A model generated the notes under the pieces. That model ran no database searches and was not told the DNA's origin. It saw only the letters and a program-made list of their open reading frames with translations. This document shows positions 9,264-54,863 of a stretch of DNA of 57,128 bases, one piece after another. Every line of letters starts with the position of its first letter. The first letter of the stretch is position 1. The stretch comes from Cystobasidiomycetes sp. EMM_F5 (lineage: Eukaryota), in the NCBI GenBank assembly GCA_051047955.1, contig JBPGPT010000024.1, positions 186,001 to 243,128 of the forward strand, written 5' to 3'. A program made the position numbers and the translations under genes.

Positions 9264-10439
9264 TATTGGCAGCCAGGTCTGCGTCGACTGTAGCCAGGAG
9301 CGCAACAGGCAGGCTTGACGTTTGCAAGAGACGAAGTGCTGGACGGAACTCACATCCGATACTGATTATATCCCGCAGCGTCAGTCAAGCAGGACAACTG
9401 GGAGAAATTGCAATGTCATCTCCTGTTATATGGCTCTGCATTTCAGCATTCATTAACGCCAATCACGCCCTGTCTCGTCATACAAAGTGAGGACATATTG
9501 TAGTCTCGACATGGCATTCCACATCCGCTCTCGTTGACTAACGCCAGCAAGCTTGTAGCAACGGCATTCACTTAGATGACTGCGAGGCGTTACCTTCCTG
9601 ACTTACTGATACAACAGGGTCTTCATTCATTTGACGAATTCGCCGCACTCACCTCATTAGCAAAGTGACGCGACAATTTTCGGCAGCGCTACAACACCAT
9701 TGTGAAAGTGACCAATTTGACGTATGCCTCCTCGTAGCAAGGAGTCTTGCAATCTCACCATGGAGCATCGTGCGACCGAATATGAATACTCGTACACTGA
9801 TGTCCCACTGCTGGCCCTCGGGATGATTGAGCACTCGTGAAGACTACATAAGAAGCATGGAATGAGATACTTTGCTGAGCCCGTCTTTGCTGTGCTCCCT
9901 TCCCACACCCTCGACTCCGCCGCGCCTCCCGCGTCAGATAAGGAGGTCTTTCGATTCATACAGACGTTCACGAGCAGCAGGCTTGCTCAATACAATCCAT
10001 GGCCAAGAGTGTGTCTATCTCTCCTTCCAGATCGCTACGGTGGACGAGCAGTCTGTCTGACGCAAACGCGCAGGGTCTTCGCTTATTGGAAAACCGTGGC
10101 CTGCCGGTGCAGATTTCACATTTTGATAAGCTCGCTTGCTCTTACGTCAGGCCTATCATTGTATGCTCCGGCGACACCCGCCTGCGCAACTTTGTCTAAT
10201 ACGTCTGACACAATTGACAGTGTAAAGCGTGGAGGAGAAAGTGTCAGACAAAACGACCACATTTCACAGCCGGCTTCGTTTGCTTCACAGGTTGACTTTC
10301 TTCTTTTCTCGGCGTGCTGAAAGGCACGCTCACTAAGGGATCGCTGCCTTGCAGGGTCGAGATTATGAGTCTCGATCATGGCGCAGGCCGAGCATTGTGC
10401 AACGCCTTGCATGGTTTCCACTCAGCTTGTGAGTGTCAA

Positions 10440-29293: not shown

Positions 29294-29873
29294 GGTGTGT
29301 GAGTGCGAGCTGTGTCGTGGTTGATAGCAGAAACGGCCGTCGTTTCAATCTAACATTAATGATCACCGCTGGGCAGTATAGCGGAGACTGGCTGCACTGA
29401 CTTGTGTCCAACGTGCTCACTGACCTCAATAATATGCTCGCACTGATCTTACACGGGTCTTCTTGACCTCCCCAGCTGATCTCGTCGCCTCCTCGGAGCC
29501 CCGCCAAAATCGCAGAAAGACCTGGTTGTTTCTTTCCGCCATTCAGCACACAGCCACCACCACGAACAACGAAAGATCCTTGCATCGTCATCGTCATCGC
29601 TAACAATACTTTTGGTTGACAGGGCCATTCGTCGTCCGGATCTTGGCAATGGCCAAATGCGGAATGACCACCGCCCACACGGTGTGACCGCTCACCGGAA
29701 GCGGACGTATTCGAGGTATCACAGCCGCACTCGATGGATGGCACTGGGAGGTTCGCAATTTCTGGCGGTCTGCTTCTTCTCGTACCCTATCAGCACTCTT
29801 GCTACCATCACACTCATTTCGCACATCCCCCAAATACCAAAGTTCCATCTGCTGGCCAGATTCACTCCCCAAC

Positions 29874-32628
29874 ATGCTTCTCCCTACCTTTATCGCAGCT
29901 TTGCACCTCGCGACATCCCTCTCTACGACTGCGGCCACCCATGTCCCTGTTGGAGCTAGAAGCGGGTCTTTTAGACTCCCTGCAGGATCCAGCAACCTGA
30001 GGCATCGCATGAAGCGTCAGAATCTCGATGGGAAGAAGGCTCTTTCTCGAACAGTTCTTGGTGCCTCTTGGATCGACTCCCTTGATGGTAGCGACGGAAA
30101 GACTGGATTGGCAATGTCTACGCCGTTGGAGGTGTACAGGCTTTCTAAGCGGGAAGCTGAGAGTAGTAAGCTAATACCCTCACTGCTTTTGATTGTACAC
30201 AAATTGAGTATCAAACTGCTACTACAGGCCAGGACGGCAGTGACACCTGCAAGACAGACGATGGTAGCATCACGACCGGCTGCGTAGTAGTGGCTGGAGT
30301 TGCCGTCGTGTTCCTAGGTGAGGCGCATACTATGTCTAGCATAGTCTCGCTCGCAACTGACAAAGTCATGTCTGTTTATTCTTGGCCACAGTCAGCCTTG
30401 GAGTCTGGGTCTCTGTCAAGGTCTACAGACTCTACTTTATCACTTCGCCGCTCGGTAATGAGAACATCAATGGCAGATATGCAGCAACTCTTGAAGACTG
30501 GAACAAATTGCCACAAGACGTTAAAGACTACGTCCAGAAGAACACCCAGGATCCGTCGCTAAAGTCCAACCTCGACAAGGCTAAGGATGCTGGATTGATC
30601 GCAGGTCGGTCTACACTCCAACGTTGTTGCCAGCTTGTCCGCTCAAATTAGGCGCTTTACACTTATTTCAGATGATCCGAAAACAGCCGAGGCTAAACTT
30701 CGCACATACCTCGACCACTGGAATAAAAATGGCGGAACTATGATTGAAACTACAGACGACAAGAATAAACTGGGATCTAACTATAAAGTCCTCGATGCTG
30801 CCACGCAAGCCAAACTCCAGGCCGACTACCCGAATACCTTGAAAATGCAAGAGGGATGGGCCAACTTTGACTTTGTAAGCACAGTCGCATTATACCATTA
30901 TACTTACAGTAATACTAACGAAAACTCCCAATAAATTGTTCTTAACAAGGTTCAAGCTGCACAAGCTGCTGGCCTTTCACCCTACATGGGTACTGACAAT
31001 CAAATCCAGGCGTACGACTTTGATGTAGTCAACGCCGGAATTGAGGCTCAAGTCAACGAGCAACTCCGGATCCTTGCGGATAATTATAACGCTGAATACG
31101 GACAAACCGTCGTGGAAGAAGATGGTGAATGGGTTCAAAAGCAATCGACGGATATTCCCGACTGGATGAAAGGCTTGTTTGATGCTTCCAGTACTGTTGT
31201 TCGTTTCAAACGCTCTCTTCCCGTTCACCCGTGGCCAGACTGACATCGCCTACGGTGTTCAGTTCAGGAGATACTACTTTGAGGACGCCGTCACTACTGG
31301 CAAGATACCGGAAGCGTTGGCAGATGCCGTCAGGCCAATCATGGAATTCGAGTGGTCAGAGGGATCCAAAGAAGCCGCTCAAGGACTGTATGATACCTGG
31401 CTACAAGCCTCAGCAATCGATAAGCCAACTCCAGAAACAGTGGGTCACAAACCCAATATTTCTTCCGGATAGTAAACTCACCCCTCTTAAATCTATGCTA
31501 GTACGTCAAATTTCTTGATGCTGGCGTCTTCAAAATCTCTGGCTTTCAAGACATGTTCAAAGCCATGGATAGGACCGCCTTTGATAGTCTGGCAGCAGAT
31601 CTTGGGGTGCAGAACTACCAGCCTAGGTAGGTCATATCGCTAAGAGAGACGGAAAAACATCTAATGATTCCTACAAATGCAAGGTTTCCCAACGATGCGG
31701 CTCTTCCGCAGAACAATGGCGGGGACAATGGAAGTGGTGATGTCAATCAACAGCCCTCGAAGGACGCCGGAGGTCAAGATGTCTCTGGTAGCGGCGATGA
31801 CCAGAAAGGCAATCAAGCACCCTCAAAGTCTGGCAACTCAGGTAACACAGGGCAGCAGACCGGCAATAAAGGTGGAAATGGGGAACCTGGTCTTGATCCA
31901 GACTGGAGTGACGCTAGTAGTCAGTAATCGTCCGCTTTGACCACAGGCATGGCTGATCTTCTGTGATTCAGCGCCTGATAAGATCGTAGACTCAATTATG
32001 GGTCAGCTCAAAACGAGATGGGGTATAAACACGCCTTCCGACTTCGGGTCCGCCGACAAACAGGTAGCTATCATGGTGCATCAAATCTCGTTGCGATTGT
32101 CAGCTAATGTATGCCCTTCACAGATGGCAGCAATGTTCGATGATCTGCAACAGCGAAGCAAAGCAGCCACAGGTAAAGCATGGCCGGAAACTATAGCGAA
32201 TAGTATCCTCGACGACCTACGGACGGCTACCGAAACCCTCTACGACAGCTTACCAGTCAGTAGCACCAAATGCATCTCAGCGTTTCCTGTGAACTGACCG
32301 TTTGGCACAGGGCGCACAAGTGGCAGGCCAGGGCAATGATCCGTCGAAACAAAGTCAATCGAATGAAGATATATGGAATGAAGGTGGTCCTAATCAACAA
32401 CAGCAAGCTAGTGGTCGGACCGGCCTTAACAACGATCCTGGTACCAACGTCGATACAACCAAACCCAACTATAATTCTCCTGACAAACCAGGCAGCGGCG
32501 GCGCCACGGACGAGACTGGCAAGACCGACAAAACCGTCGAGACACTGCCAGATGAGGTTTTGCCCGCCAGAAAGCGACAGATGGTCCGTCGAGTCAAGCG
32601 TCAGGCTCCTGTCCGGATCTCGTTGTAA
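29874..32628 (+). CDS. Gene A1: uncharacterised secretory-pathway preproprotein, about 11 exons
   Basis: Signal peptide MLLPTFIAALHLATSLSTTAA. Dibasic sites RMKR and LSKR-EAE. Then C-x10-C and hydrophobic VVVAGVAVVFLVSLGVWVSV, a helical body, G/N/Q/D-rich linkers and basic tail LPARKRQMVRRVKRQAPVRISL*. Exons splice in phase at the same positions as A2. Confidence 0.85.
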
Positions 32629-33027: not shown

Positions 33028-36000
33028 TCATGATCCACCTCGTGCGGCAGCGACCGGGTTGAAGTTTGTAGTCGATGCATCGCAGTCATAATCTGAGACT
33101 GCAGCAGCTGTCAGACGGGTTTCTGGCCACCAATTCGGCATACGGCGCTTACACAGATTATCGTAATGAATATAATCAGACGTGCACGTTGATTGAGCAC
33201 AGCTGGCAGCTCCGTATGCGCCAGAAGCCCCACTAAAGTTGCAAACCCTTTTTTGCAAATGAGCATTTCTCTTCCAAGGGTATCCCATTGGCACTGGGCA
33301 GCTTGGCCTACGATGAACAGACGTCAATGAGAGATTTGGCGGGAACGAAGATGTATTCTACCTCGCTTGAGCTTCATGGTACGCTTCGCTGCAGAACTTG
33401 TATCCTTGAGGCCATAGTGGTCCAGAGCACGTATTGTACGAGCCACTGGTCGAACCCATCTCTGCAGGACGTTATGTGAGCTCTATCCCCGGATCAACTA
33501 GCCTTGCACGTACGATTTGCGCAGTAATAGGAGATGCCCTCCAAGGTGTCGCAGTCGACGGGCGCATTGGAATCCTTGCAATACTGCTTAAGTTGTTGGT
33601 CGTCAACGTCGCACACAGGGATGTTGACAACACAGGTGTCTGTTGCAAGACGGCCAGTGAAACCGATGGGTTGCGGGAAATCCTTTGGGTCACTGCTAAG
33701 TGGGAAGCCACCCCAGGGGTTTACCGTTTTATTTGTTGAGCAACTGAGTGCAGCATTAAATCTATGTAGAAGTGTGTCAGAACACGTCAAGTACCTCGCG
33801 ATTAGTAAAAGGCTCACAATACGTCCAGACTGAATCCGTATTCCTCTCCAGTTGCAATACTGTCCAATTGATCAGACGTCAGTCCGACGCCGATACTAGC
33901 ATCGTATATGGCTGCAGCCTGTACGTCGCAAGGCGCTGGTCAGATCGCGAGCGCCAAAACCGCGTTGACTTTACATACAGGGCAACCATCGAGATCTGAG
34001 ATCGGCCAGAAAGTCTGTTCCCAATATGTAGCGTAGTATAGGCGACTATCGATGCAGGTAGCGCTATTCGCTGATGCCGCTGTACCCTTCAAGGCCGTCT
34101 GACAAGAAGCTGCATCTCCATAGTCTTTGGTAGTGAAGAATATCTTTCGGTCGCGGAAGATCTGTGGATGTAAAACTCAGCACTCTGATGAAGCTTACAA
34201 GCTACCGAGGCTCACGTCGGTGAGCAAGTTTGCCATCAAATATGCAACCATAGTATGAACACTAGCGTAGCTGGGGAACGCGTGAATCAATGAGTCTACC
34301 ATGCCGGGCTTGGACACAAGGTCGTAGATAGATTCGTAGTCTGAAATTGGTACATCTGGGATTAGCTTGACAAATGACTAGGAGTCAGGTCAGACCCACC
34401 TTGAAATCGAGAGCTGACGACCGTGTTTTGCTGCGTCGTATAGTGGTCCTGTTCCGCAGAAGTGTAAGCTGCAGGTCTTAGCGCGCACGGAAGCTTGACG
34501 CGTACGATTATTGGGTCCAATGTTGCTCGGTAGGATGCCGCGTTTAGGTCAGGTTCTGGTATGTTATTTAGTCAGCCAGTGCAGCGATGCGCTACTCGTG
34601 CAACAACACAATACGTACCAGGTGCCATAGGATCGTTTTTGGTTTGCTGATTGTACCATGTCATGAAACCTGAGTTGCCAATCATGAGGAGCATATCCAA
34701 TGGCATCGTTTCCGGGGCAACAAGCATCATTATTCCCAGCACACCGTTCATTATACTGTCGTTGAGACAAGCTGTTAGCCCCAGTCCGCCCAATTTCATG
34801 GGGAAAGAACTGTTCCTCACGTAGAAGTCAATTGCACTTTGAAAGTCCGATGTAATGGCAATGAAGTTAGCGCGTATTTCGTGCAAAGAAAACAAATCAC
34901 ACTGCACCTGGATCCATCGAGTTGTCCGCTGCCTGCTTGCTCAAGCCGAACCCATTGACAATGTTATCCATAAGATTGTCGACATGTTGCAAGGCAGTAT
35001 TCGCGTTTCCTATGAGATTCCAGCTGACAGGTACAAGACATCAGATTTGGTGTCAACTGCTGGCCTTCGAGGAACGCACGCAATGTTGTTGTAATTGCTC
35101 AAAGCCTCCAAGATCAGATCTGCAAATGCAAGCGATATGTACTTATAATTTAGTGAACGATGTATGTTTACACCATGATGACTCCTCACAGGCGCCAACT
35201 TGGTCTGAGATACGCGAAGACGTGAGCAAGGTCGTGCCCAATTGCATCGAGAACATCTATCGTACCTTGACGATAGTACAAATCTTTCGTTCCGGTAGGC
35301 GTGTATGGCGAAACAGGGGTGTCGATGACGCATTCTGCGGCTCTAATACATATGTATCGACTGATCAGTTGTATACGACTCTCGTCTATCAACGGAAGAT
35401 TGCGTACGGTGTGCAGTCGAAGGTGTAGCCATCCTTTAATGTGGCGGCAAATTGGTGCGTGAATGTAGTCGACGAAGTGCTACACAGCGTGACAACATCA
35501 GCGTGACAACATCAGCGTGACAACATCAGCGTGAGTTGCGCCCCAGCGACAAAGCAGTATCAGACACACTCCATTGTGTCTAGGCCGTTTTCCTTGACAA
35601 AGCCCGTAAACCAATCGAGGATGTTGCATTTCTCTGCGAACCAGCACGAGCGTACACAGCGTTAGCTACGTGCATATCCCGCAAATGCACATTACCCTTA
35701 CCAAATATGCCCTTGAGAGCAGAAGCAGTTGGATCATACAATGTGTAACAGAAATCATCCTTTGCAAGTAGAAGAAATTGTCAGCCAGTCTATTCTACCT
35801 ATACAAACGGTGCATAAAAGAACCTGGAGCGCAGAACACTGATTGAAGAGCGAGTCCCAGTATCCCATGGCACCCAGTCCACAATCCCGACAGACACCTT
35901 GGTAACAAGTTGTCTGGCCAAGTTGGTCTTGTGTAGTGCAGGCCAGACCTATGCCTCCACAATTATTTATATCTGATGATATGTCAATACAATTGCCAGT

Positions 36001-36760
36001 ATTGGGATCTTTGATTGAGCCAGTAGCGCATTGGGCATCGCTGTCGTACAGAAAGTATCAGAGACGTGTCAGCAGGACCGGAAGCTGCTGGAATGAGAAG
36101 TCCGGATCTGCGTCGCTCACCATTTGCCTGTTGCGCAAGGCGCAATACTGGTATACGTTGCCGAAGTTACAGAAATTGACGACGAGGACGAGGAAGAGCT
36201 TGAGGTGCTTGAGGTGCTTGATAAGAGACTGGTAGAGGAGGAGGAGGACGTGGAAGTGGAAGAAGCCGAGACAGTAGAAGTAGTGGAAGAAATGGACGAA
36301 GTTGTAAGGGAAACAGACGTTGATGTCGTGCTGGGAGTAAAGAAAGATGCGGATTTGGATGTAGCGCTTTCTGCGGTTGACGATGTCGAGTAGGCGCTGC
36401 TCGTCGACGAAGCCTCTTTGGACGATGACCAGCTCGTGGAAGAGGACGAGGCTGATTTCCAAATGTCGGCTGCTGTTGTAGCAGAGTATCCCGACGAAGA
36501 GGCTAACGACCATGCATTCTTCGCAGTGGAAGAATCGGCACTGCCACCACGACGCACCAGGCGTCTGAAGTGTGAGCTATCACGGTCGTTGACATTCAGG
36601 TGTCGACCACCATGATGCTGATTGCCGTCGACGGCTGTGATGAGAACGACACTCCAAATCGTCAGAGCCCGTAATTGATGCCTATAGCCACTTGCAAATG
36701 CTCACCGGTAAGAATACACAGGGCAGCCAGAAGGAGCGCAGGTTGAAATGTAGCGAGCAT
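33028..36760 (-). CDS. Gene B1: uncharacterised secreted Cys-rich protein, about 20 introns
   Basis: Signal peptide MLATFQPALLLAALCILTAVDG, then RRLVRR and an S/T stalk. Cys module CIDISSDINNCGGIGLAC. Central region DLILEALSNYNN ... IMNGVLGIMMLVAPETMPLDMLLMIG. C-terminal Cys-rich region and WKRNAHLQKR-VCNF...AARGGS*. Confidence 0.85.
35485..35534. repeat. 14-bp tandem repeat (CAGCGTGACAACAT) x3.6 in an intron of gene B1
   Basis: cagcgtgacaacat-cagcgtgacaacat-cagcgtgacaacat-cagcgtga read directly. Absent from the equivalent B2 intron. Confidence 0.95.
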
Positions 36761-37740
36761 CCTGTCTCCACTTAGGACCAGCTAGCGGGTAAACTTGACG
36801 CAAACAAGGGTTGGAGGGTATACGAAGACGCTAGGCAAGACTTGAGAGGGATTAGAGACGTCTATAGTTGTAGGCTGCCTGCCCTGCTCGGTGCAAATGT
36901 CAAACTTAGTATTCCTTCAGACCTCAGGCACCAACTGCCATATTCGTGCTGCGAACATCGCCAGCTGGGGCCTGGCTGTCACAGAATGGGACAGATGGCC
37001 ATGCGGGGCTGCGTGCAAGTCTTTGCATTCCCGATGTATACATCAGTGAGCGTAAAAGGGCTGCAGCTCCGCCGTCGGAGGCGTCGTGCTCGAAAGATGC
37101 AGTGTATGCCGTGGTGTCGAAGGTGGACGGCTGATGGCAGCCGCAGTCTATCTGCAAAGCGAGGTCCGCATGGCTCCAGTTCAGATGGTCATGGTCATGG
37201 CCTGTGTGCTTTCGCGGCGTGCATTTGTCGAAGGCAACGCCGTATTGTCCTCTCATTTTCATGGCACTGACCACTTGAGTATACGCTGACAGACTTGAAT
37301 ACTCATACGATGCTCTCACTGACTCTAACGGTCTTACTAACCACTGCAAACGGTCTCGTCTACCTTGCTGAAGAGCCTGAGCCCGTCAGTGGCAAAAGGG
37401 CCTTGTTGTGCTTTGCGGTTTTCAGCACACAGCCCCGCCCAAAACCATACAGCAGCTGCAGCAGAGACACACACAGCGACGTGTCTAACAATAACCTTGA
37501 CAGGGCCATGCGCCGACCGGATCTTGGCAAAAATGGCACAAATGGCCGAATGCGGAATGGTGCCCACAGCCTACTGTATATAGATGTACGTTCTGGACCA
37601 CTGATCAGAAGCGCACCTTAAAATTGTTATCACTTTATGGAATTGACGGTTCCCTTCCTAGCATACGTACAGCTCAGCTTTGATAGCAGCTGAATCCGTC
37701 ACCACCTTCATAGTACCTCCTGTTCAGATTTCCCCACAAC

Positions 37741-40444
37741 ATGCTACTCCCAACTTTCATAGCCGCGTTGCATCTAGCGACTTCCTTCTCAACGACTGCG
37801 GCCAGCCATGTCCCTGTAGGAGCTGGAAGCGGGTCTTTCAGGCTCCCGCTGGGGTCTGACAGCATCAGGCATCGAATGAAGCGCCATAACCTCGATGGGA
37901 AGAACGACATAAGTCGAAAGCTGGCTGGCGCTTCTCGTATCGAGTCCCTTGTTGCACCGACTGTTGGGCTAGCAAATTCTTCACCGATTGATGTTGTAAC
38001 TGAAAACAAGCTATCCAAGCGGGAAGCCGATCAAAGTGAGCCATGTATCTCTCTCCTTATGGCTATACGACTGACGTTCCTCCGTCTCTCCAGGCCAGGC
38101 CGACAACGACAGCTGCAAGGCAGAGGATGGCAGCACTATGCTCGGCTGTGTGATAGTCACTGGAGTGGCTGTCGTCTTCGTAGGCAAGTATACCTACTTA
38201 AACACCCTTGCATGTAAGAATCCGCCGGCTGACGATTCTTGCATTTATACTACAACAGCGGTCTTTATGACCTGGGTTGGCGTCAATGTTTACAGACTCT
38301 ACTTTGTTACCAGCCCGCTTGCCAATGAGAACATCAACGGCAAGACTGCACCTACGTATGAGGACTTTAACAAGTTGCCTGAAGACGTCAAACAATACAT
38401 CGAACAAAACACGCAAGACCCGTCCTTTCAGGCCAATCTCGACAAGGCCAAGGATGCTGGATTGATTTCAGGTCGGTTTCGATCTGCACAGCAAAGGAAA
38501 GCTCCTCCGAATGGCTTACCCTCAAACCGTTCTCAGATGATCCGAAAACAGCTGAAGCAAATTTGCGCACGTATCTCGACCAATATACCAAAAATGACGG
38601 AACTGGAATTGAAGGTCCACAAGTCCAGAATAAGCTCGCGTCCAACTATAAAGTCCTTGATGCTGCTACACAAGCCAAACTCCAGTCCGACTATCCGAAT
38701 ACTCTGGATCTGCAAGCGAGCTGGGCCAAGTTCGACCCCGTAAGCTGCATTTGCACCGCAACATTGTCATAAGCATTAATGGTCGGTTCTCCACATTTCA
38801 TCGTGATAAGATGCAAGCCGCGCAAGCTGCTGGTCTTCAACCTTACATTGGAACCAATAATCAGATTCTGCAGAGCAATTTCGACGCAGTCAATTCTGGA
38901 ATCGAATCCCTGATCAATGGGCAGCTTCAGAACCTTGCGGACACTTATAACGCTGAGTACCCCAATCAGGTTGCCGATCTAGGTGGTAACAGTCAACCGG
39001 CCCAGTCACAATCGACAGTTCCTGAATGGATGAAAGCTTTGTATGATTCTTCCAATCCTGTCGTACGTATTCGTCATGGGATTGCGTTCAATCGCCGCTG
39101 ACTAACGTTAGCCGCCATGTTCAGTTTAGAAAGTACTACTTTGAAGACGCTGTCACGTCCGGCAAGATACCAGCGGCCGTGGCAGATGCCGTCAGACCGA
39201 TCATACAAGCAGAATGGACAGAGGGATCCAAGGAAGCCGCTCAAGATCTTTACAATAATTGGTTAGACGTCACCCAAACAACAAATCCCACACCCGACAA
39301 CGTAGGCTGAAGCCATGTCATGTTTATGCTTTAACGAACTTACCCCTCTTGATTCTATACTAGTACGTCGACTTCCTCCATTCCGGTGTCCTTGAAATCT
39401 CAGGCTTCCAAGGCTTGTACAATGCCATGGACAGGACCGCCTTTGATAGTCTGGCAGCAGATCTAGGAGTACAGAATTACCAGCCCAGGTATTCCAGCCC
39501 GGGCACGACATATCGTTAGTAGCACAACTAACTTGTTTTCTGAACGCAAGATTTCCGAACGATGCGGCTGTTCCGCAAAACAATGGCGACGACAATGGCG
39601 GGAACAATGGCGATGGAGGTAATGGTCAAGACCCCTCAAAGTCCGGCAATTCGGGCACGCAGCAACAGAATGGTAATAAAGATGGAAACGCACAGCCTGA
39701 TCTTGATCCCGACTGGAGCGATGCTAGTAGTCAGTCTCCTTTACCACGATGATCGCCAAATTTGCTGATTCCCATTATTCGCTCAAGCACCTGACAAGAT
39801 TGTAGATTCAGTTGTAAACGAGCTCAAAACGAGATGGGGCATCAATGCGCCATCTGACTTTGCGTCGGCCGACAAACAGGTAATGATAACGACTTGTTGC
39901 TATCGCCGCAGCACCTAATAAATGCATATCGCGCACAGATGGCAGCTGTCTTTACTGATCTACAACAGCAGAGCAAAGCAGCCACAGGGAAAGCATGGCC
40001 ACAAGATATTGTGTCCAAAATGATTCTGCAATTGAGAGAAGCTACTGAGACCCTGTACGACAGCCTACCCGTGAGCATTGTTAGACTGAGTATTCTCATT
40101 CCTCCCGGAATCTGACTATTTTTGTACAGGGTGTCCAAGCCCAAGGTCAAGATAATGACCAGTCGCAAGAGAATCAGTCGAGCGATGAATTGTGGAATGA
40201 AGGTGGTGCTAATCAACAGCAACAGAGTAGCGGCCGGACCGCGATCAACAATGATCCTGGTACAAATGTCGACACTACCAAGCCGAATTATAATTCTGGT
40301 AATAAGCCGGGGAGCGATCCTACTACTGACAAGAGCGGCACTGATAAGACCAGCGAGACACTGCCAGATGACATACTGCCCGCAAGGAAGCGACGAGTCG
40401 TCCGTCGAGACAAGCGTCAGGCTCCTGTGCGGCTGTCGTTGTAA
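37741..40444 (+). CDS. Gene A2: paralog of A1
   Basis: MLLPTFIAALHLATSFSTTAA, RMKR, LSKR-EAD, GCVIVTGVAVVFVAVFMTWVGVNVYRLYF, and tail LPARKRRVVRRDKRQAPVRLSL*. Introns at the same positions as A1. Confidence 0.85.
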
Positions 40445-40783: not shown

Positions 40784-43700
40784 TCATTGTCGCGACCCAC
40801 CTCGTGCGGCAGCGACCGGGTTATATTTCGTGGTCGATGCATCGCAATTGTAATCTGAGACTGCAGCAGCTGTCAGAGGAGCTCCCGACCGTCATATGTC
40901 ACTTGACGCTTACATAGATTATCATAGTGAATATACCTTGAGATGCACGTTGACTGAGCACAGCTGGCAGCTCCGTATGCCCCAGCAGCCCCGCCAAAGT
41001 TACAAACCCGTTTTTGCAAATGAGCATTTCTCTTCCAAGGGTATCCCATTGGCACTGGGCAGCTTGGCCTACGATGAACAGACGTCAATGAGAGATTTGG
41101 CGGGAACGAAGATGTATTCTACCTCGCTTGAGCTTCATGGTACGCTTCGCTGCAGAACTTGTATCCTTGAGGCCATAGTGGTCCAGAGCACGTATTGTAC
41201 GAGCCACTGGTCGAACCCATCTCTGCAGGACGTTATGTGAGCTCTATCCCCGGATCAACTAGCCTTGCACGTACGATTTGCGCAGTAATAGGAGATGCCC
41301 TCCAAGGTGTCGCAGTCGACGGGCGCATTGGAATCCTTGCAATACTGCTTAAGTTGTTGGTCGTCAACGTCGCACACAGGGATGTTGACAACACAGGTGT
41401 CTGTTGCAAGACGGCCAGTGAAACCGATGGGTTGCGGGAAATCCTTTGGGTCACTGCTAAGTGGGAAGCCACCCCAGGGGTTTACCGTTTTATTTGTTGA
41501 GCAACTGAGTGCAGCATTAAATCTATGTAGAAGTGTGTCAGAACACGTCAAGTACCTCGCGATTAGTAAAAGGCTCACAATACGTCCAGACTGAATCCGT
41601 ATTCCTCTCCAGTTGCAATACTGTCCAATTGATCAGACGTCAGTCCGACGCCGATACTAGCATCGTATATGGCTGCAGCCTGTACGTCGCAAGGCGCTGG
41701 TCAGATCGCGAGCGCCAAAACCGCGTTGACTTTACATACAGGGCAACCATCGAGATCTGAGATCGGCCAGAAAGTCTGTTCCCAATATGTAGCGTAGTAT
41801 AGGCGACTATCGATGCAGGTAGCGCTATTCGCTGATGCCGCTGTACCCTTCAAGGCCGTCTGACAAGAAGCTGCATCTCCATAGTCTTTGGTAGTGAAGA
41901 ATATCTTTCGGTCGCGGAAAATCTGTAAATGCAATACTTAGCCCCCTGAAATCATGACTCGCAATGAAGGAAGCCGACGTCGGTAAGCAAGTTCGCCATC
42001 AAGTATGCCACCATAGTGTCGACACTGGCGTAGCTAGGAAATGCGTGGATCAGTGAGTTCACCATGCCTGGCTTGGACAGAAGTTCGTGAACAGTGTCAT
42101 AGTCTGTAATAAGTGAGACGACTTGATTAGCTTGGCGAATTATGCAGTAGTCCGGTCAAACCCACTTTGGAAACGATTAGTAACGACCAGATTTTGCTGC
42201 TTCGTATAGTGGTCCTGATTGGAATATGTAAGTCATTGACATTTTGCACACACTGGCCTGACACGCACGACTATAGGATCCAGGGTTGCCCTGTATGACG
42301 CCGCGTTGAGGTCAGGTTCTAATACGAAATCTGGTCAGCCAGTGCAGCTATGCGCTGTTCGTATAAGAGTGCAACAAGTACCCGGTGCCATGGGGTCCGT
42401 CTTGGTTTGCGCATTGTACCATGTCATGACGCCCGAGTTGGCAATCATGAGGAGCATATCCAAGGGCATCGTTTCCGGGACGGCAAGCATCATTATTCCG
42501 AGCAAACCATTCATGATACTGTAATGATAAATGGCTGTCAGCTGCAGTATGCCAAACCTACTTCGCAGTAGACGTCACTCACGTTGATGCGAGTTGCACT
42601 GTGAAGGTTCGGCATTGGATTTAGCGGATTATGCGTAGACACAAGACAAAGCAATCCGTACCTGGATCCATTGTATTGTTTTTCGCCTGCTGGCTCAAGC
42701 CAAACCCATTCACTATGTTGTCCATGAGATTGTCGACATGCACGATAGCAGTGTTCGCATTCGTGATAAGGTTCCACCTGACAGGGCCGAACATCGCGTC
42801 AAATTTTGCATAAATATTACGCTAGGACATACGCACGCAATGTTGTTATAGTTGCTCAGAGCCTCCAAGATTAGATCTGCGACATATGCTCGTAAGTCGA
42901 AATTGAACTATGCCTCCATCAGTACAAATGCTCACAAGCACCCATTTGGTCTGTGGGGCCATGCAGACGTGAGCATCTCTGTTATCCCGGCACGACAGAA
43001 AACAACTCTCTTACCTTGCCGATAATACAGATCGGTAGTTCCGGGAGGCGTATAAGGGGAAACAGGTGTATTAATTGTGCATTCTGCCGCTCTGAAGAGT
43101 GTTCCGACGGATCAATCACAAGCAACGTGGACTAATATGTGGAGCAAACCTACGGGGTACAGTCAAAGGTGTATCCGTTCTTCAGCTTGGCTGCAAATGC
43201 ATGCGTGAAGGTAGTTGAAGAAGTGCTGCAGAGTAGAAAGGGTTCAAGATCAGATTGAGCGGTATTTGCGACATGTTCTGAAGCAGTAGAGACGTACTCC
43301 ATGGTGTCAAGCCCGTGTTTCTTGGAAAAGGTGGTGAACCAGTCGAGAACGTTGCATTTCTCTGCGATTGAGCGAAATATGAGCGAAGTGCGAGCTACAT
43401 TCTTATTACACCTCTCTTTGCCCGTACCGAAAACGCCTTTGAGGGCAGAGGCAGTTGGATCATCCAATGTGTAACAGAAATCATCCTGTGTAAGAAGGCA
43501 AATGTCAGCCAGTCTGTCCTAGCTATCCAAGTGGTGCGTAAAAAAACCTCGAGGGCAGAACACTCATTGAAGAGCGAATCCCAGTACCCCATAGCACCCA
43601 GTCCACAATCTTGACAAGCACCTTGATAGCAAGTTGTCTGGCCAAGTTGGTCTTTTGTGGTGCACGCCAGACCTATACCTCCACAGTTTTTGATATCTGA

Positions 43701-44442
43701 TGATATATCAATACATTTGCCACTATTGGGATCTTTGACTGAGCCGGCAGCACATTGAGCATCGCTGTCCCACAAAATAAATAGAGATGTGTAAGCAGGT
43801 CCGGAAGAAGCTGGAGTATCAGAATCTGCGTTACTCGCCATTTGCCCGTCGCGCAAGGTGCAATACTGGAGGACGTTGCCGAAGTTACAGAAACTGATGA
43901 TGAAGACGAGGATGAGCTTGATGAGCGACTGATGGAGGAAGACGACGTGGAAGTGGCAGTAGCCGACACAGTAGAGATAGTGGACGACGTGGATGAGGAT
44001 ACCCGTGCAACAGACGTGGACGTCGTGCTGGGAGTAAAGAAAGATGCGGGTTTGGTGGTAGCGCTTTCTGCAGTCGACGACGTCGAGTAGGCGCTGCTCG
44101 TCAACGGAGCTCCCTTGGACGATGACCAGCTCGCGGAGGAGGACGAGTCCGATTTCCGAATGTCGGCTGCTGTTGTAGCAGAGGACGACCATGCATTCTT
44201 CGCAGTGGAAGAATTGGCGCTACCACCACGACGCGCCAGGCGTCTGAAGTGGGAGCCGTTACGGTCGTTATTATTCAGATGTCGACCACCATGATGTTGA
44301 TTCCCTTCGACGGCTGTGAATGAAGTACGTTCAAACCACGCGATATAGTTAGAACTTCAAATATCAGACGAGTTGATCAATACTTACTGGCGTAAATGGA
44401 CAAGACGACCAGGAGGATTGTTGATGGGGAGATGGCGAGCAT
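40784..44442 (-). CDS. Gene B2: paralog of B1
   Basis: MLAISPSTILLVVLSIYA signal, RRLARR, S/T stalk, CIDISSDIKNCGGIGLAC, and C-terminus WKRNAHLQKR-VCNFGG...AARGGSRQ* (stop 40786-40784). Confidence 0.85.
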
Positions 44443-45045
44443 AGTGTCTCCACCCTAGGTCCAGCTAGCGGGGGAGGTTTGGAAAGTGAATGCGGTCAGT
44501 ACGTCAAGAGGATACTCCAGATATCCACAAGGACGTCCGCAAGATCGGTTTCTCCATTCTACGCCCGCCCATTGTTATTGTTCCTTCAGCCTTCAGGGAC
44601 GACCACCTGCCATATCCGTGCGACGACATCGCCAGCTGGGAAAGGCAGTACAGCCTGGGCAGACAGAACAAGACACATGGCGGTGTAAGCTGAGTGCGAA
44701 TGTGTATGTACCGTCAGCTTGCGGATCAGCGAGCAAAGCGGTCAGCATCATGATGTCCATGTGTTCAGAATTGCTTGTGACCAGTTTCGAATACAGACAC
44801 TGGAACACCTCGACGGTGTACGAGCATTCCGATTAGCCATGCCAGGTCTTGTCTGGTCTGTGTTACTTATCATTTTCATTCATTGGTGGTCTGGCAGTCT
44901 GGCAACCCAAGACCAGCTCAATGAAGCCTATCGTGATGTCCACCACCAACTCCCTGTCCGTAATAATCTTCCAGCATACTATCGTCGCGACAATTGATGT
45001 ACAACTAAAACTAAATGCCTATTATCTACTCTTGGCGCTGCGGAT

Positions 45046-47113
45046 CTATTGCCTTCTCGCCGGCGCAGAGGTTGCAGCTGTTGGTCCAGGACTGTGACCC
45101 CTAGCATTACTCTGAGCTTTCCTGGGTGGCAGAGTATCATCGTTGTTGTTTGAAGTCCCTACACTTCCACCTCCCGTCGAAGCATTGAGTCCCAGCTTCT
45201 GCCGACTTCGAGACTGCCTCACATCTTTCGAAGTATTGCTAGCGGGCAGTGGTGCAGCGGCAGCCAAAACGGGATTTGCTGCACCTCCAGTGTTCGATAG
45301 TGTCCGCGCTGGTGCAACAGCTGGAACCGTAGCAACAGCGACTGGAGAGACGGCCGGAGTAGCTTTTGCGACCACTGTCACAGCTGCAACCACACCAGCT
45401 TTCCAATGGCCCTTGTTATTGATTCGCTCTAATTCTCTCGGATCTTGCGGTCTGCGAGAAGGACACAAATTAAGCTTCACTTTGTTGCTGCCAAGAATAC
45501 CAGACCAACCTCAACCTCAACCATTGCATTCGTGGACCAGACCTCGCCCTCTCAGACACCTTGAACCCATAGATCCTGGGAATATATATCTTTGCTGCGC
45601 TAGTCACGCTTGTCGACCATGGTACCTCGCCATCACCCGATATATCTGCCATTGCGCTATCGTCAATCACAGCGGCACCGCCTGTCGACTTGCTTGTGTC
45701 TACAGTGCTATTTTGTCGACTGCGCTGATCTGGAGCTGGGGAAGTAGGAGCAGAGGAGGGAGGAGCTGTACTCGTTGTTTGCGTAACCAAGCCATTATTG
45801 AGCGGAGGCACCAACTCGGGATGTTGTTGGAATAGAAGATGAGGAAAAGTCGTGCCGAAGAAAGCGCCGTCGACGCCATTGAAGCGAGAAGAAGGTGGCG
45901 TATAGGTATCTAGACAGTTGGGACAAAATAGCTTGACGCCATCCACACCGGGTAGATCTGAGCGACCACTTGGGAGTACACGGGTCTGGTTGCAGAATAC
46001 CCTTGGACAGTAGCCGAAATGCGCATTCTCGTATTTCGTCACCATCTGTGCGAGACCTTGACGCGTCAGAATATATCGCTGGTGGATCAGACCATACAAG
46101 AGCTCTGCCGACGACTCGACAATGGACATGTCTGGTATCTTGAGCGCTTCCTCCTCTGCAGCACATCATGCTAGGTCAGCACACTCAATGTCGCGTATAT
46201 ACAGAGAGTCGACGAACCTGGCTCAACATCCAAAACCATCTCTAGCGCTTCTTTGTAGAATGGTACCAGCTGACTCAGCCCTGTTAGATTAAAGTCGTCT
46301 TCGATAAAGTCTTCTGTTACTTCGGCAAAGTCTGTGGGTTGTATACATAAGCCAGCGAAGAAGGCATCGCCATAGGACAACTTACACTCATGCCCAGGAA
46401 GAGAGCAATACCAGGAGATCCAAGTTAAGCTATCTGTGCCAGATTGTGATGATGATTCTGTTGATTTGGCGTATGTCAGAAACGATCTGCAGGCAAGTAG
46501 TACGACATGCTTTCAACATACCATACTCTTCTTCTTCGTCATCTTCCTCTTCCTCCTCCTCTTCTTCCTCGTCGTCCTCTCCCGCTATCGCCATTTCCTC
46601 GCCTAGGGCGTCCAGAATCTCTTCACCAACAAAATCCTCCTCGTCGAGCTCCTCCTCCGCTGGCTCGTCACCGTCCTGAAGACCTGTCCCAGCTTGCCCT
46701 GTCGGCTTGTAGATTTCCCACTGCGGACTGCCAGTACGCTCTGCCGAGTTTCTGTTGCTTCTGCCTGGCTGCCCTAGGGCTTCCTCGTCTGGGACATCCT
46801 CCTCGAGCGCTTCGTCATCGTCTTGCCCTACCATCACAGAGTCGTTGTGGGCATTGAGCGTAGGATTGGGCGCCTGGTGAGACGAGGATCGACGACGGGA
46901 ACTGCCAGACTGTGCGCCCGGCGACCCAGCTGGATGGCCCGCGTGCTGCTGCTGGCGTTTGCTAGACTGAGAATGGGAAGTTGTCGGGGCTGTAGAAATC
47001 TCAGAGTACGTCGTTGTGCTGGCTGCTGTTGGAGCGTTTGTTGCAAAAGGAGAGCCCGCAGACGATGGCCCAGCTTCAGCGAGGAGCCGGGCAGAAGCGC
47101 GCCTGGATCCCAT
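45046..47113 (-). CDS. CKB1: Casein kinase II regulatory beta subunit, multi-exon
   Basis: LTWISWYCSLPGHE, FAEVTEDFIEDDFNLTGL, SAELLYGLIHQRYILT, zinc ribbon FGYCPRVFC...VKLFCPNCLDTY, DGAFFGTTFPHL, and YIPRIYGFKVSERARSGPRMQWLR. Confidence 0.95.
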
Positions 47114-47905
47114 GGCGCCGAGCAGTTATGGCGTGTAACTTCCTCGATGAGCTGGTGCTGCTGTCCACTGGCCAGGTCGGTCTGAGCTGCCCAGCTTTCG
47201 CGAGTTTGAATTATCAGTTGACGGTCAACAATTTCGAAAGCGTCCGACAGGAAATGGCTGGACGCCCTACGCTGATACGGCGACAGCGGCGAGTGCTTGC
47301 TGCAGCTCAAGAGCACGGCAGCTGGTCATTTGCTTCGAGTTGGGCGATATCCAAAGTCGAGAATGGCCTCCAAGTTGGCCTTTGACCGACAGCTCTGCCT
47401 CGAGATTCGCAAACTTCGGCAGAGTACTGCACAGCTCTGACTCTACTGACCAGACTGACCAGACTTATGCGCTGGGGCGCTTTCTGACGCCCGGCGAAAT
47501 GGTTGCACAAGCTATTGAATGTCTGACAGTTTCCCATTCGAAGACTGAACTGCTTTTCCATTGTCGTCGGACTATTGGATTATGCCGATTACGCTGGTGT
47601 GGTACACTTTACAGGTGCCGCCGACAAAGATACGTTTCTGTCATTACCTATAGCCTGTTTTGTGCTTGACAATGGGTCGCACTGCAGACAGACCGACCAC
47701 GATACATTTCAACGCAAGACGTTGCGCGTTGTAGCTAATCTGGCCAGCATGCCGCTCTAATCAGACTTTGTTGGTCAGAAAGTCCCTCCGGCGGCAGAAA
47801 AGATTGCTACATTCGCGGTAGAAGCGTATGGCCATACAAGCGGACAGCATGCTACACATTCTGTTATACTCCAGCGTATACTGCACTTAGCTTCAAATCC
47901 CTCTG

Positions 47906-49218
47906 CTATACTTTTTCCAAGACTTGCGCCTCAATGTCCGAATAGTCGTTGGACGGGCCAAGCTGTATCGTGCTTTCCCACGTTTCCGGAGCGTCCCACG
48001 ATGACGTTGCCATCGACGTAATCTGTACGGCAGGTTTATTGTTTCTGCGGATATGAGCATCTCTTGCGGGTCGGAAGTCACGTTCTTCTGCCAGCTCTGG
48101 CGCCTGTACGATTTGGAATATGCCTTCACCGGACCGCGATGACGAAGACGTCGGATGGCGCAGTGATCCTAGCTTGGCACCCTTGGACACTCGTGTCGAG
48201 CCATTCTCGCTTGTAAAGCCAGGGACGAGTCCCCGTTGTCTGGCTGTCGTGCCTTCGATGCAGTATACCAGCGAGAAGAGGTATAACGACGGAATACACG
48301 CTGTGGGATGAGTAGTAGTGATGTCAGAGTATGACTTCTCGAGAGTCGAGCGAAGAACTCACGCTGAGCCAAGAGCGACCAATTGATGAGGACATAGTTC
48401 TGATAAGTTGCGATATAGATTACTGCAGCTGCAATGTTGACGATGGTAGGCACCAGAAATGTCTCGAACGTGAGACGAATCATAGAATTGACGTAGCCAT
48501 CTGTCCTGCTACTGAAGCCCTGCTTCAATGCGCGGAGATGCACGCTCAATAGACCGGTGATAGCTAGATCAACGCCAACACTGCTCCACAACCAGAGTTC
48601 CGAGGCGTAGTAAATGTTTGTCGTGTCTAAGGATGCGGCATCGGGTCCCATCAGAGGATAAGCAGATACTGTCATCCATATAGCACCGCTGAAGCTTGCA
48701 CAAAGACCAATTCCCAGCAGTGTCAGAACGAGCATACCGCGCTTGACGACCTTGTAGCATCTTAGAGTGAGGATAATCTGGCTAGTCACGCCAGCAGCAC
48801 CAGTAAGGACAGGCGCGGCAACGTCTGCGGCCCGATAGTAGCTGAAGCCATCGACAGATCTGTCCTGCGTGCACGCGTATATGGCCACTTCGATAGCGTT
48901 CACGAGGGCAGCTGCAATATTGAGCAGTATTGCAGCCAACAGCAGCTGCCAGCCAAAGGTTATGCTTCCGAGGGCTTTTACAGATTTTCTGCGCCGTAGT
49001 AGACGCAAAGCTCGGTCTGTCACTATGCCGCATAGTAGGACTTGAAGCGTCCTGCGGAGCAAGTCAGTCTTTGCCGTCTGACATGTTGTGTACTGCTCGA
49101 CCTACCAACCAATCGCGAGCGGCACCATCAGCATAGTCGCTTCGTACGGTGTCGCCGGCGGCCATACATTGCTGTCGGTAAGCCTGGGATCATCGAGACC
49201 AGTGGGAGCATCCGCCAT
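47906..49218 (-). CDS. Multi-pass membrane protein, DUF6534-like basidiomycete family
   Basis: Several TM segments plus LWLWSSVGVDLAITGLLSVHLRALKQGFSSRTDGYVNSMIRLTFET...IPSLYLFSLVY. Start MADAPTG at 49218. Confidence 0.75.
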
Positions 49219-49940
49219 ACTGCGACTGCTTGGTATCGACAAGGCGAAGGTACAACGGAGATGGCAGACGTGGTAAAGAAGTGGAGTTGACGTCTGAAGT
49301 GTCAATTAGGTGCTGCAGGATATGTTAGGACTAGCCGCGTCATGCAGGAAGCAACGCTATTGACGCGCGGGACCTGGAGCCGAGGTCAGCATGAAACAAA
49401 GTTTGGGTCTCGACATCGATATCCCGCTCAGCTCTTGATACAAAGTTGACTTGTTCGGATAACGGCATTACGATGTAACTGTCAGTGTCCAGGCTGGCAG
49501 CTGTCCCTGCAGAGTCGGCCCGCCCTCCTATGACAGATGGACGCATTAGGCAGCTACAGGTACGCCAAAGCCCAGAACCTAGAGCTAGATGAAGCTGAAT
49601 ACTCAGATGATGGCTGAAGTTGTGAGCTGTCATCTCGACGTGCATATCAAAATTGCCGAGGGATGACTGCAGAACTGGCAGATGATACCCAACTTGAAGC
49701 GGGGCTGATATTACGAGTATATCGGTGGAAACAAGGCTGACCGTAATTGACTATCAGGAGGCTTCATCATAGTCTTGCGATTAAGCGACATGTCTATCAC
49801 GGCGGGCAGGCCGAGTCGTCGAAAAGCCATGGAGCGCCAGGCGCGGTAGGCGGAGAACAACAAGACGGAACGTTGCAAATACATAACAACAGACAAGAAG
49901 CTCGAAGTGTAATACTATGTACGTGCTGACAAGTACACAA

Positions 49941-50910
49941 TCAAGCAGATGCCTTCTTCTTTGGACTGTACCGCGCAAACCGATTCTTGATGACGCGGAG
50001 TTTGCCAACATGCGCAATAGCAGGTTTGGTCAACCCATCGTCGAGTACGCGTCGATACGCGCCGCCTTGGACATTGATGGACTTTCCGAGGTTTGCATTG
50101 CCAGCTTTACGACAGGCCATTACATTCTTGCGCCGACGGATATCGGTGACAGACCAGTACATTTTCTGCTCTTCTGGGTGGAGCGCAACGGAGACTGCCA
50201 TTGGGCCTGGTAAATCGAGAGCATATCAGTGCTGGTCGAGTGAGGATTACGGAGAAACACGCTCACCGGCTAGAAAGAGTGAAAGCGGCATGCTGCTACA
50301 CGAATTGCCGTCCGCGTCGAGAATGTCAACAGTGTCTCCAGAGTCTGACTGTACGATAGACATTGTCCAGACTGGGCCGTCATCGGCAATGACCTGCGAG
50401 GAGAACACGCTAGTCAGAGACACTGCATTAGAAGCTGGAGCAGAGCCTACTTGGGCGAGATGGAAGAATCCAGGCTGAGCCGAAGCTTGTTGAAGCATCA
50501 TCGTGAAGAGCACGGCTGTGGGACGAACAACATCAATATCCGTCTACAATCGTTCAATACGGAATACATGCAAACTCACTCGAAGGCGTATCATGGTCGA
50601 TATCCGGAGATCCCACAAAGTTTCTCTGACGAGGCGTAGCACCGGGATGGTCGCTCATATCATCCAATTGACCATCCGGAGCGAGCTTAAAAGTGACGCA
50701 GGGGCTGGACAAGCCGAATCTACGAGGGCACTGGTCGATAGCCGCAAAGCTGGTGGATATGAGCTTGTTGGCTGTGTCGCCCAGTAGCGACAGGTAGCGG
50801 ACCCCAGATGTACGGCCATTGTACACGACGCCTTTTGACAGCGACGTAATGACATCGGCGCTGGCCAGGGATGCCAGAGTGAGGGCGACGAGAATGCGAG
50901 TGGATGCCAT
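49941..50910 (-). CDS. Secreted protein, possibly polysaccharide-lyase-like beta-jelly-roll fold
   Basis: Signal peptide MASTRILVALTLASLASA. Three exons. Motifs PRQRN, FFHLAQV and QGGAYR occur in the order of the R-x-E, Q-(I/V)-H and K-x-G-x-Y regions of PL7/PL20-like proteins. Confidence 0.55.
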
Positions 50911-51452
50911 TTGAAGTGTGAATGTCGAAATGTAGAATATTGTAAGCGAATGCGGAATGTAAATGGGAAAGCTGCACAAGTCAGAGTCTCAACAAACGCA
51001 ATCCAGGGTGTGCTAGTTGTTTGTCAGCTCGGCACTGGCAGGGGTCCAGCCATTTTATTTTACAAAACATGGATCGCGTTCAGCCCCGTCGCGTAAAGTG
51101 TGGCTTGTTGCGAGTGGATTAGGAATCAGAGCAACAGCGTGGTAACATTCAAATTTAGAACATATCTGGCGATATCGACCCACGCTTCGTGACATGGGTT
51201 GATGCCGGGACAGCGCAATTCTGGTAATTGACGGAAGACAAAGTGGAGACAAACTCAATCGAATTGACAGCACTCATCAAGCATCTGGTATCTAGATTCT
51301 AGCGATACAAATATTGTGCGTCTTCTGCGTACGGTTCAGATGGCAGACATCGAGCAGACGTGTTTGCGCTCCCACTCGACAGTAATAGAAGGCGAAGTTT
51401 ACTGACCAACAGACGGCTGAGTAACCGAGTACTGCTTTCACGTCGAGACCCT

Positions 51453-52603
51453 TCAAACCAATCTGGGGGCAGTGTTGACGGTCGGCAGAGCGGTGCCATT
51501 TCCAGCAGAAGTCGCGCTTGACGCAGCAGGATCGACAGAAGTGGCCAGAGGAGCTGCAGTGCCAGCCGTAGTGGCATCAGCAGTTGTAGAGGATGCAGCT
51601 CCAGTGCTGCCTAGAGTGTGAGCAGAGCCAGACGCAATGTTGGTAGCCTGCTTCTTATCGGCTGCGATACGGGAAGCCTCCTCGTGCACAGACTTGATAT
51701 TGTTGGAAGTCTGCGTGTAGAAATGACGAGCCTGCTGACCAAATTCGGAGCGCAGGATGCGATCATAGTCTGTGTATAGAATCGCGCACGGTAAATTAGG
51801 CCTTGACTGCACTCTCGCCAGCCGAATGGTGTCACTTACATGATTTGCCAGTAGCAATCGCTTTGGATGCCTTCTCGTTAATCTTGACTTTGTCGTCTGC
51901 CTGGGCGTATGCACCGGCAGCTCTGGACTGGATATGCGTTTGCGCCTCGAGCTCTGCAGTACGCGATTTTGCTTGCTCGGCCAGAGTATTGAAGAAGGAG
52001 AGGAAGCGCGAGGAGATGCCGTGCTTTTCTGTTGATCGCAATATGCAGGTAATGATTGTCAGAGCTTGTCCGCTAATCACAATGAACGAGGACCTCGGAA
52101 CATACGGTCAAATGATACGGCCTTCTGGATGATAGAGTCGCTCAAGACGTAGCCGTGAGCAAGATATTCTGCTACAATAGCTGTTCTGGGCTTGGATTCT
52201 TGTGCAATGTCGTCGGAAGTGAGGTGATCATCTCCAACGATTGAGGGTGTATCTTCGTCGATGATCTCAGACGAAACTTGAATAGGGGATCCGTCGAGAG
52301 TGCCGCCTGCATGTCCATGTTCAGTCTAAACTCTCACTTCTATTCCGCTTCCCCTACTCACCGTTCAGCATCAGAGCAGTAGAGGCTGCACTCGGCTTCT
52401 CGAAAGTAACGACGGCTTTGTGGCCTTCTTGCATTTCGATGTGCCCGATAGACCCGCAGAAGGCCATGAACTTGTGCAAGCTGGCTTCATCGGTCGTCGA
52501 GGATAGGTTGGCGACGTACACCTGCGAGCGAGGCGGTGCGTCAGGAATTTGTCAAACACTCGAATGAACAGGATCGCCAAGCAAGGGTACGCACTGCAGA
52601 CAT
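51453..52603 (-). CDS. Vip1-like RRM-domain protein, multi-exon
   Basis: MSAVYVANLSSTTDEASLHKFMAFCGSI...VTFEKPSAASTALMLNGGTLDG, IAQESKPRTAIVAEYLAHGYVLSD, and FYTQTSNNIKSVHEEASRIA. Confidence 0.85.
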
Positions 52604-52951
52604 TGTGAGATTGATATGTGTTGGGTGTGTCGACTGTTGCCGTCAGAATTTTTGGGGTACGCAGAGTATTGCCGAGCATGGCCAAGTCCGCGGATGTGAG
52701 ATCAGGTCAAGACGGGCAATCAGCCAGACGTAACAAGTCATAGACCGCAAAGATACTCACAGTCAATAAAACAGTACGTTCTCGTTGGTGTATCGGGGAA
52801 GTCGAAGGTCTCGCTGTGCGAACTGATGCTGCCCTAGCGGTGATCGAGTTCGTCATAAAAAGGTGAAGAAGCAATGCATTGAAAAATACAACGACAGGTG
52901 ATGTATACACGGCATGCACTGTGACTACGTAATTGCTGGATGTCGCTGTGC

Positions 52952-54556: not shown

Positions 54557-54863
54557 GCTCAAATGGAAGATGGCGTAAGAATGGCCTTGTAAGAGCCGCA
54601 GGTCCGCCGACTGATCGGCTGTCATTTGAAACCCTGTAGGCGTTACAATGCTTTCGCATGAATGAGTGTGCTGGTTGAGCTCGCAGTATACAACATCATC
54701 ACTGTACTGTCCTACTGAATACCCTCCGACTAAACATGCCTGAACGAGAAACGTAAACGAATGTGATTAGGTGAAGCGACCGCAACAGAAAAGCGGTAAA
54801 ATAGAACGGTGCGAATGATTGGTAAACAGTTCAGCTCTTGCGATATTGCTACCACGAGATTCG

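Follow-up and report, generated by a model that had tools for sequence, protein, structure and literature searches.

A duplicated gene pair for putative secreted proteins in a basidiomycete yeast, one of them ending in a four-cysteine tail

We describe here a pair of adjacent genes, A and B, which lie duplicated in tandem in the window analysed (a stretch of 57,128 nucleotides from Cystobasidiomycetes sp. EMM_F5). In our preferred reading, to which we give a probability of about 0.45, the two genes make up a lineage-restricted, Kex2-matured two-gene secreted module, in which the four-cysteine tail of B is a constant small subunit and which probably acts on cell surfaces. The four-cysteine peptide and the A/B pair are real, rare and undescribed, and they are less striking than an earlier note on this DNA had read them. 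If the preferred reading is true, an undescribed and apparently unannotated secreted two-gene module is added to a little-sampled yeast class, and a testable processing model becomes attached to DUF7872-like proteins.

Gene models and relatives of B

The window contains a tandem duplication, at an offset of about 7.76 kb, of the convergent genes A (plus strand) and B (minus strand), with 69–80% DNA identity between the units, and it is flanked by ordinary housekeeping genes. The first unit consists of A1 (29874..32628, plus strand, 11 exons, 708 aa) and B1 (33028..36760, minus strand, 21 exons, 813 aa), the second of A2 (37741..40444, plus strand, 11 exons, 690 aa, 473/685 residues identical to A1) and B2 (40784..44442, minus strand, 21 exons, 802 aa). 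B1 and A2 stand head-to-head across a spacer of 980 bp (36761..37740), which may hold a shared promoter. Two upstream blocks (36906-36969 / 44575-44640 and 29616-29666 / 37497-37552) are 81–84% identical between copies in otherwise diverged intergenic DNA and are possibly promoter elements. Pfam matches in the flanking genes (2977-28556 and 45046-55580) are to ankyrin, PQ-loop, SH3, tyrosine phosphatase, PHD, PCI, DUF6534 and PAF-acetylhydrolase families; frames resembling casein kinase II beta and WD40 proteins in the same flanks were recognised by eye only.

The host genome is 18.3 Mb in size and carries many introns. Manual modelling of B1 gave 21 exons and an open frame with 20 GT..AG introns; these exons were then mapped onto the second copy, where the 20 introns fall at the same places and in the same phases, all of them GT..AG except for the GC..AG intron 2 of B2. 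The exon modelling of both genes is supported, because the A1 model matches a public annotation (P0036, 99.4% identity over aa 46–708) and because P0005, a metagenome fragment, aligns unbroken with B aa 576–717 across three modelled splice junctions (pairwise search, E 5e-18). P0036 starts at the 46th residue of A1 (cf. 29874-30008), and thus without the predicted signal peptide, and has four extra residues at intron 9. GC-AG introns where the other copy has GT occur in both genes of the second unit (B2 intron 2, 43838-43765; A2 intron 2, 38184-38258), and B1 intron 5 (35480-35569) holds three copies of a tandem repeat of about 14 bases that B2 lacks.

From its N-terminus onward, B1 consists of a hydrophobic segment, a Ser/Thr stalk, a Cys module, a hydrophobic core, a DUF7872-like Cys domain, two adjacent Lys-Arg (KR) sites and the terminal peptide. 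The N-terminal segment of B, with a hydropathy of about 2.0, is a putative signal peptide, as judged from hydropathy rather than from a predictor. Exon 2 (36121..36634, this and the following exons on the minus strand) encodes a short pro-like segment and the Ser/Thr-rich stalk and has no Pfam match. Exon 3 (35824..36040) encodes the Cys-rich module, which matches the CPL1-like family (PF21671) weakly, at 16.6 bits in B1 and 12.7 bits in B3, the third copy discussed below, and thus falls below the cut-off of 27.4 bits although most of the module is contained in a single exon. Exon 12 (34619..34755) encodes a moderately hydrophobic segment (aa 409–441, 19-residue hydropathy 1.4–1.6), and exon 18 (33514..33761) a Cys domain with a weak match to DUF7872 (PF25278), where the scores of 19.3 bits in B1 and 14.5 bits in B3, against a cut-off of 26, come from scans of single exons or intron read-throughs. 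The Pfam scans covered B1 exons 2, 3, 10, 12 and 15–20 and B3 exons 4 and 11, and took exon 21 only in its intron-retaining frame; the exons scanned gave no match above cut-off and no significant match in solved structures. The middle region of B presumably resembles secreted ascomycete proteins that bear DUF7872.

Relatives of B are few and remote. A HMMER scan of exon 18 against 1.84 billion representatives returned six matches, of which the metagenome proteins P0005 and P0006 were retained; both are fragments with 32–33% identity that end before the KR region. P0004 and P0007–P0009 were dropped, since they are long and repetitive and their scores add up weak stretches. Word-based searches returned no B relatives, pattern matches to B were confirmed in 0/183 and 0/23 cases in metagenome contigs and in 0/318 in prokaryote genomes, and the sequence searches yielded no full-length relative. 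The predicted model of P0005 (pLDDT 41.5) is too poor for use, and ESM Atlas gave no usable match for this protein, the best score there, 0.81 for P0013, having lead value only. B seems to have been overlooked by public annotation, at least in the records available to the scan: none of the proteins returned contains exon 18 itself, whereas A1 and part of A3 do carry annotations. In the literature searched, which lacks most subscription papers, we found no description of the A/B gene pair and no mention of DUF7872 or of the label PTHR33339.

The four-cysteine tail and its divergence between copies

The last 54 residues of B1 (aa 760–813; 33028..33246, minus strand) form a four-cysteine peptide, encoded by the end of exon 20 (33246-33153) and by exon 21 (33098-33028, including the stop codon). 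The last intron, intron 20 (33099..33152, minus strand, 54 nt, GT..AG), thus lies inside the peptide and is found at the same position in B2 and B3. In B2 the corresponding peptide has 56 residues (40784..41007, minus strand), and its intron (40913-40861, GT..AG) has 53 nt. Once this intron is removed, both peptides (33246-33028 and 41007-40784, minus strand) read as the earlier note had written them, and the seven synonymous codon pairs that it named are all present; counted from the last Arg, 13 codons differ synonymously. The predicted tails have 5.5 kDa and a pI of about 4 in B1, and 5.8 kDa and a pI of about 7.8 in B2. Retention of the last intron was rejected, as the frame then stays open only in B1, while the introns of B2 (53 nt) and B3 (56 nt) shift it into unrelated tails; the intron is therefore needed. 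It is 70% identical between B1 and B2, as against 90% and 81% for the flanking exons, and its splicing is thus supported by frame and divergence pattern. Matches of the tail to Ginkbilobin-2 (E 1.2) and EsxG (E 0.65) in solved structures were rejected as chance.

Four different B exons, when used as genome queries, gave three matches each, and the third copy, B3, is located on another contig (C207). B3 has lost intron 10, and its silent sites are close to saturation (pS 0.6–0.96). All 30 mature cysteines (30/30 invariant across B1, B2 and B3), both KR sites and a homologous four-cysteine tail are retained in it, so the tail is not swapped among paralogues. A stand-alone tail was not found in the genome, where the three matches at E<=1, among the best candidates scored, all lie within B genes.

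The earlier note stressed that the tail differs between the copies; comparison with the core speaks against any special variability. The tails of B1 and B2 are identical at 47 of 54 positions, with a pN/pS of 0.19, and the core (aa 185–535) at 297 of 351, with a pN/pS of 0.15 (Fisher p=0.84); 184 of the 298 core windows of 54 aa diverge more than the tail does. The changes D>R, D>N and N>K, which the note had singled out as altering charge, are indeed present among the seven amino acid differences, but they are not enriched over the core, since 3/7 differences change charge in the tail and 19/54 in the core (p=0.70), and a net charge shift at least as large as the tail's +4 (over aligned positions) occurs in 40/298 core windows. 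Against B3, the tails are 63% and 57% identical and the rest 78% (p=0.023 and 0.0013, or p=0.14 and 0.042 without the low-complexity end), with tail pN/pS values of 0.26 and 0.39. Here the divergence of the tail modestly exceeds that of the core, which amounts to relaxation and not to positive selection. Over the three pairwise B comparisons, tail pN/pS is 0.19–0.39 at a pS of 0.41–0.96; the tail is under purifying selection, with no sign of positive selection.

The appearance of a variable tail has its origin in what lies next to it. A tract of 909 bp, which spans four introns, is identical in the first (33250..34158) and the second copy (41011..41919) and ends at the Lys of the second KR site, on the last base before its Arg. 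Elsewhere the two units share no identical run longer than 32 bp, and introns outside the tract are only 51–77% identical between B1 and B2. The tail seems variable because this identical tract stands directly before it, and caution is in order in such cases, as a conversion tract beside a normally diverged segment imitates a 'variable tip'. The identity probably results from recent gene conversion. For the tract only, and independently of any reading of the proteins, an assembly or polishing artefact that wrote one copy into both places would also account for 100% identity through four introns while other introns stand at 51–77%; it is nevertheless unlikely, since reads from copies only 70–80% identical would not cross-map, both flanks of the tract are cleanly divergent, and the tract region evolves at a normal rate in the comparison with B3 (76%).

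The position of the tract end also bears on the proposal that a constant carrier bears the tail as a polymorphic tip, be it a toxin or a specificity element, where conversion would homogenise the carrier and selection would keep the tips different. The tract ends exactly at the second KR site, and the KR-KR stretch takes up 27 of 3733 bases, so that the chance for either tract end is about 1–2%, a hand estimate made after the fact. The greater divergence of the tail against B3 leans the same way, as does a divergent A-like gene whose likeness to A is confined to the C-terminal part, which indicates domain exchange in the partner family. On the other hand, the tips are homologous in 3/3 copies, with pN/pS (0.19, 0.26 and 0.39) well below 1 and indicative of purifying selection, no orphan tip cassettes or stand-alone copies were found, and the tract is common to two copies only and represents a single event. 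We thus regard a polymorphic tip as very unlikely, and the payload or specificity reading of the earlier note is not supported.

Predicted processing and the partner gene

Two KR sites, which are predicted Kex2 sites, directly precede the tail (33247..33273, minus strand; aa 751–752 at 33273-33268 and aa 758–759 at 33252-33247) and are separated by a spacer of five residues. The earlier note called the peptide KR-flanked; two KR sites do precede it, but both lie before it, and at its other end is the stop codon. The KR-spacer-KR arrangement is kept in B2 and in B3, where the spacer has changed and lost one residue, leaving four. Apart from these two neighbouring sites, none of B1, B2 and B3 contains a KR, where 0.2–0.8 would be expected per protein, and all four KR residues are kept in B3, as against 12/27 of the other K/R residues (chance about 0.04); the N-terminal RR pairs of B1 and B2 are not kept there. 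A conserved Leu stands four residues before the cut at the second site, which fits the preference of Kex2. The genome also encodes a kexin (Kex2-type) gene, at about 7400-10200 on the minus strand of contig C197, whose product combines a catalytic region with a P domain, a Ser/Thr region and a transmembrane tail. Kex2 cleavage at the B sites is likely, given that KR is restricted to this place and that the genome encodes a kexin. Kex2 processing is hence the part of the earlier proposal that we retain, also in view of conserved KR sites in A, while its polymorphic payload is unsupported.

It could instead be that the KR sites are uncut, or cut only incidentally, and that B is a cell-wall or adhesin-like glycoprotein with the tail as its last small disulfide domain. 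The Ser/Thr stalk and the weak CPL1-like module do resemble basidiomycete surface adhesins as presented in the available part of PMC12864254, and the tail is conserved like the rest of B. This is quite unlikely, however, as both KR sites are specifically conserved around a changing spacer, and as the CPL1-like match is below cut-off and N-terminal in B, whereas it is C-terminal in four proteins in the available part of that paper.

In the preferred reading, B would be made as a secreted proprotein, from which the signal is removed and in which disulfides are formed. Kex2 would then cut at one or both KR sites, removing the spacer of 4–5 residues, to give a large glycosylated chain and a four-cysteine chain of 54–56 aa. 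The small chain would stay with the large one, held either through its fold or through a disulfide, as happens when two-chain killer toxins mature; it would not be an exchangeable payload. Cysteine numbers are even on both sides of the cut, with 26 in the large chain and four in the tail, which fits a free peptide and a tethered chain equally.

Alternatively, Kex2 could set the tail free as a slowly diverging peptide with two disulfides and an antimicrobial or signalling role, acidic in B1 and B3 and near neutral in B2. Four cysteines could pair internally, two tandem KR sites would make for efficient release, the net charges of the tail are −4 (B1), +1 (B2) and −5 (B3), and its divergence against B3 exceeds that of the core. 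Against this, the charge changes show no enrichment over the core, the tail has no family match in Pfam or in solved structures, no gene for the tail by itself was found, and the 800-aa carrier is equally conserved, so it must have a role of its own. A free peptide is thus possible, if on the unlikely side.

The preferred reading extends, with less assurance, to the partner gene. B and a Kex2-processed, membrane-seeking A would be co-produced from head-to-head genes and act together at the cell surface, where the stalk and Cys module of B would bind the wall and a hydrophobic segment of A or B would enter the membrane. The target would most likely be competing microbes; antagonism is the weakest step of this scheme, as neither Pfam scans nor solved structures gave sequence similarity to any toxin.

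A1 and A2 share a layout of hydrophobic N-terminus, KR site, KR-EA site (Ste13-type), two-Cys loop, strongly hydrophobic helix (A1 aa 116–136), Cys-free remainder that is helical and of low complexity, and KR-Q sites at the C-terminus, and the KR-EA and C-terminal KR-Q sites are kept in 3/3 copies. The helix is preceded by acidic residues and followed by few basic ones, with no Cys downstream, and would also fit an ordinary single-pass membrane protein. All three A copies end (32560-32628 in A1; 40380-40444 in A2) in two KR sites, then mostly Gln, then a short terminal peptide, an end that resembles a basic patch or a short product of Kex2. There was no Pfam match above cut-off and no significant solved-structure match for A, and the search for its relatives returned only three public proteins, which correspond to A1 and A3 of this same genome. 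The predicted model of P0036 is too poor (pLDDT 42.6), and a fold search with it gave 0 matches at E<=0.001.

A adjoins B in 3/3 B copies, head-to-head in two of them (B1/A2, and A3/B3, 873 bp apart), and three of the four A-like genes adjoin a B. A3 is split, within an expanded Gly/Ser/Asn/Gln repeat, over the start of contig C207 (1-400) and the end of contig C193, so that these two contigs are probably adjacent. It lacks intron 7, and its 3' part, on the C193 end, retains the C-terminal sites. The fourth A-like gene (contig C193, about 51900-53820, plus strand) is divergent. Its similarity to A is limited to the helical and low-complexity stretch near the C-terminus of A (aa ~510–677, 33–37% identity), and its N-terminal part is unrelated to A. 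No B-like neighbour was found in the 20 kb examined around it (C193:42001-62000), and A-type proteins thus need not work with B.

The most ambitious reading takes A and B together as an undescribed secreted system of two components, serving as a toxin or in self-recognition, that belongs to a lineage of basidiomycete yeasts and has no chitinase. Here Kex2 would free a disulfide-rich specificity peptide from B, conversion would homogenise the carrier up to the cleavage site, selection would keep the tips distinct, and the A family would exchange its N-terminal half. We consider this highly improbable; a fungal polymorphic system of wide interest would be at hand only if the tips prove to be free, active and copy-specific.

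Comparison with known systems

There is precedent for chains that are cut by Kex2 and kept together. In K28, Kex2 removes the gamma segment to yield a disulfide-bonded heterodimer, according to the available text of PMC5666379, and in CCTX2 the Kex2-cut fragments stay together, according to that of PMC13324453. Like the yeast killer preprotoxins of the K28 and K1 type, as far as the same part of PMC5666379 describes them, B has a putative signal peptide, predicted Kex2 sites on both sides of a spacer, whose removal would leave two chains, and cysteines available for an interchain bond. Unlike them, B is a protein of about 810 aa with stalk and Cys modules and a spacer of just 4–5 residues, its gene is nuclear, with 20 introns and a partner gene, and no sequence similarity was found between them; any toxicity of B is putative.

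With zymocin-like nuclear toxin clusters, and with C-II chitinases carrying fused effector domains such as Hce2, the A/B locus has in common linked secreted-protein genes, a large modular precursor that would be cut, and cluster duplications in basidiomycetes (bioRxiv 10.1101/2024.10.25.620242; PMC13556262; available parts of both). A zymocin-like cluster was rejected, as the five GH18 matches lie on contigs C197, C243 and C101 and none on the B contigs C157 and C207. Unlike the gamma-toxins of the available part of bioRxiv 10.1101/2024.10.25.620242, which have Cys near the C-terminus, A1 and A2 (690–708 aa) have no Cys after the hydrophobic helix, and, unlike the clusters, A/B come without an identified immunity gene.

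Processing of the kind proposed here has precedent in a basidiomycete, where, according to the available text of PMC9769878, precursors are cleaved at KR and trimmed by Ste13. The same text reports a precursor without repeats from which one KR-flanked peptide, adjacent to a GH128 domain, is released. Like the Kex2-processed repeat proteins (KEPs) described there, B is a predicted secreted precursor with dibasic sites and a putative signal peptide. A KEP was rejected, as self-comparison of B reveals no internal repeat; unlike KEPs, B has one tail, which is far longer and has four cysteines. B also resembles CPL1-like and PriA secreted proteins of basidiomycetes (PF21671; PMC12864254, available part) in its weakly matching Cys-rich module, putative signal peptide and low-complexity stalk of the O-glycosylation type, and differs from them in that the match is below cut-off, that B is much larger, and that its module is located close to the N-terminus. 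The likeness to DUF7872 (PF25278) proteins consists of weak matches, all below the 26-bit cut-off.

Finally, polymorphic toxin systems combine a large carrier, a processing site, a small C-terminal piece and tandem paralogues. B has the large carrier, a predicted processing site between it and a small C-terminal piece, and the tandem paralogues. Unlike polymorphic toxins, on the other hand, it has no exchanged tips among its three copies and no orphan cassettes that we found, and its tail is under purifying selection. A hypervariable tip was rejected; the tail is no faster than the core between B1 and B2 (p=0.84) and modestly faster against B3, with a pN/pS across copies of 0.19–0.39. B thus does not behave as a polymorphic toxin in those tests that were run, and would work like a Kex2-matured, multi-chain fungal secreted protein.
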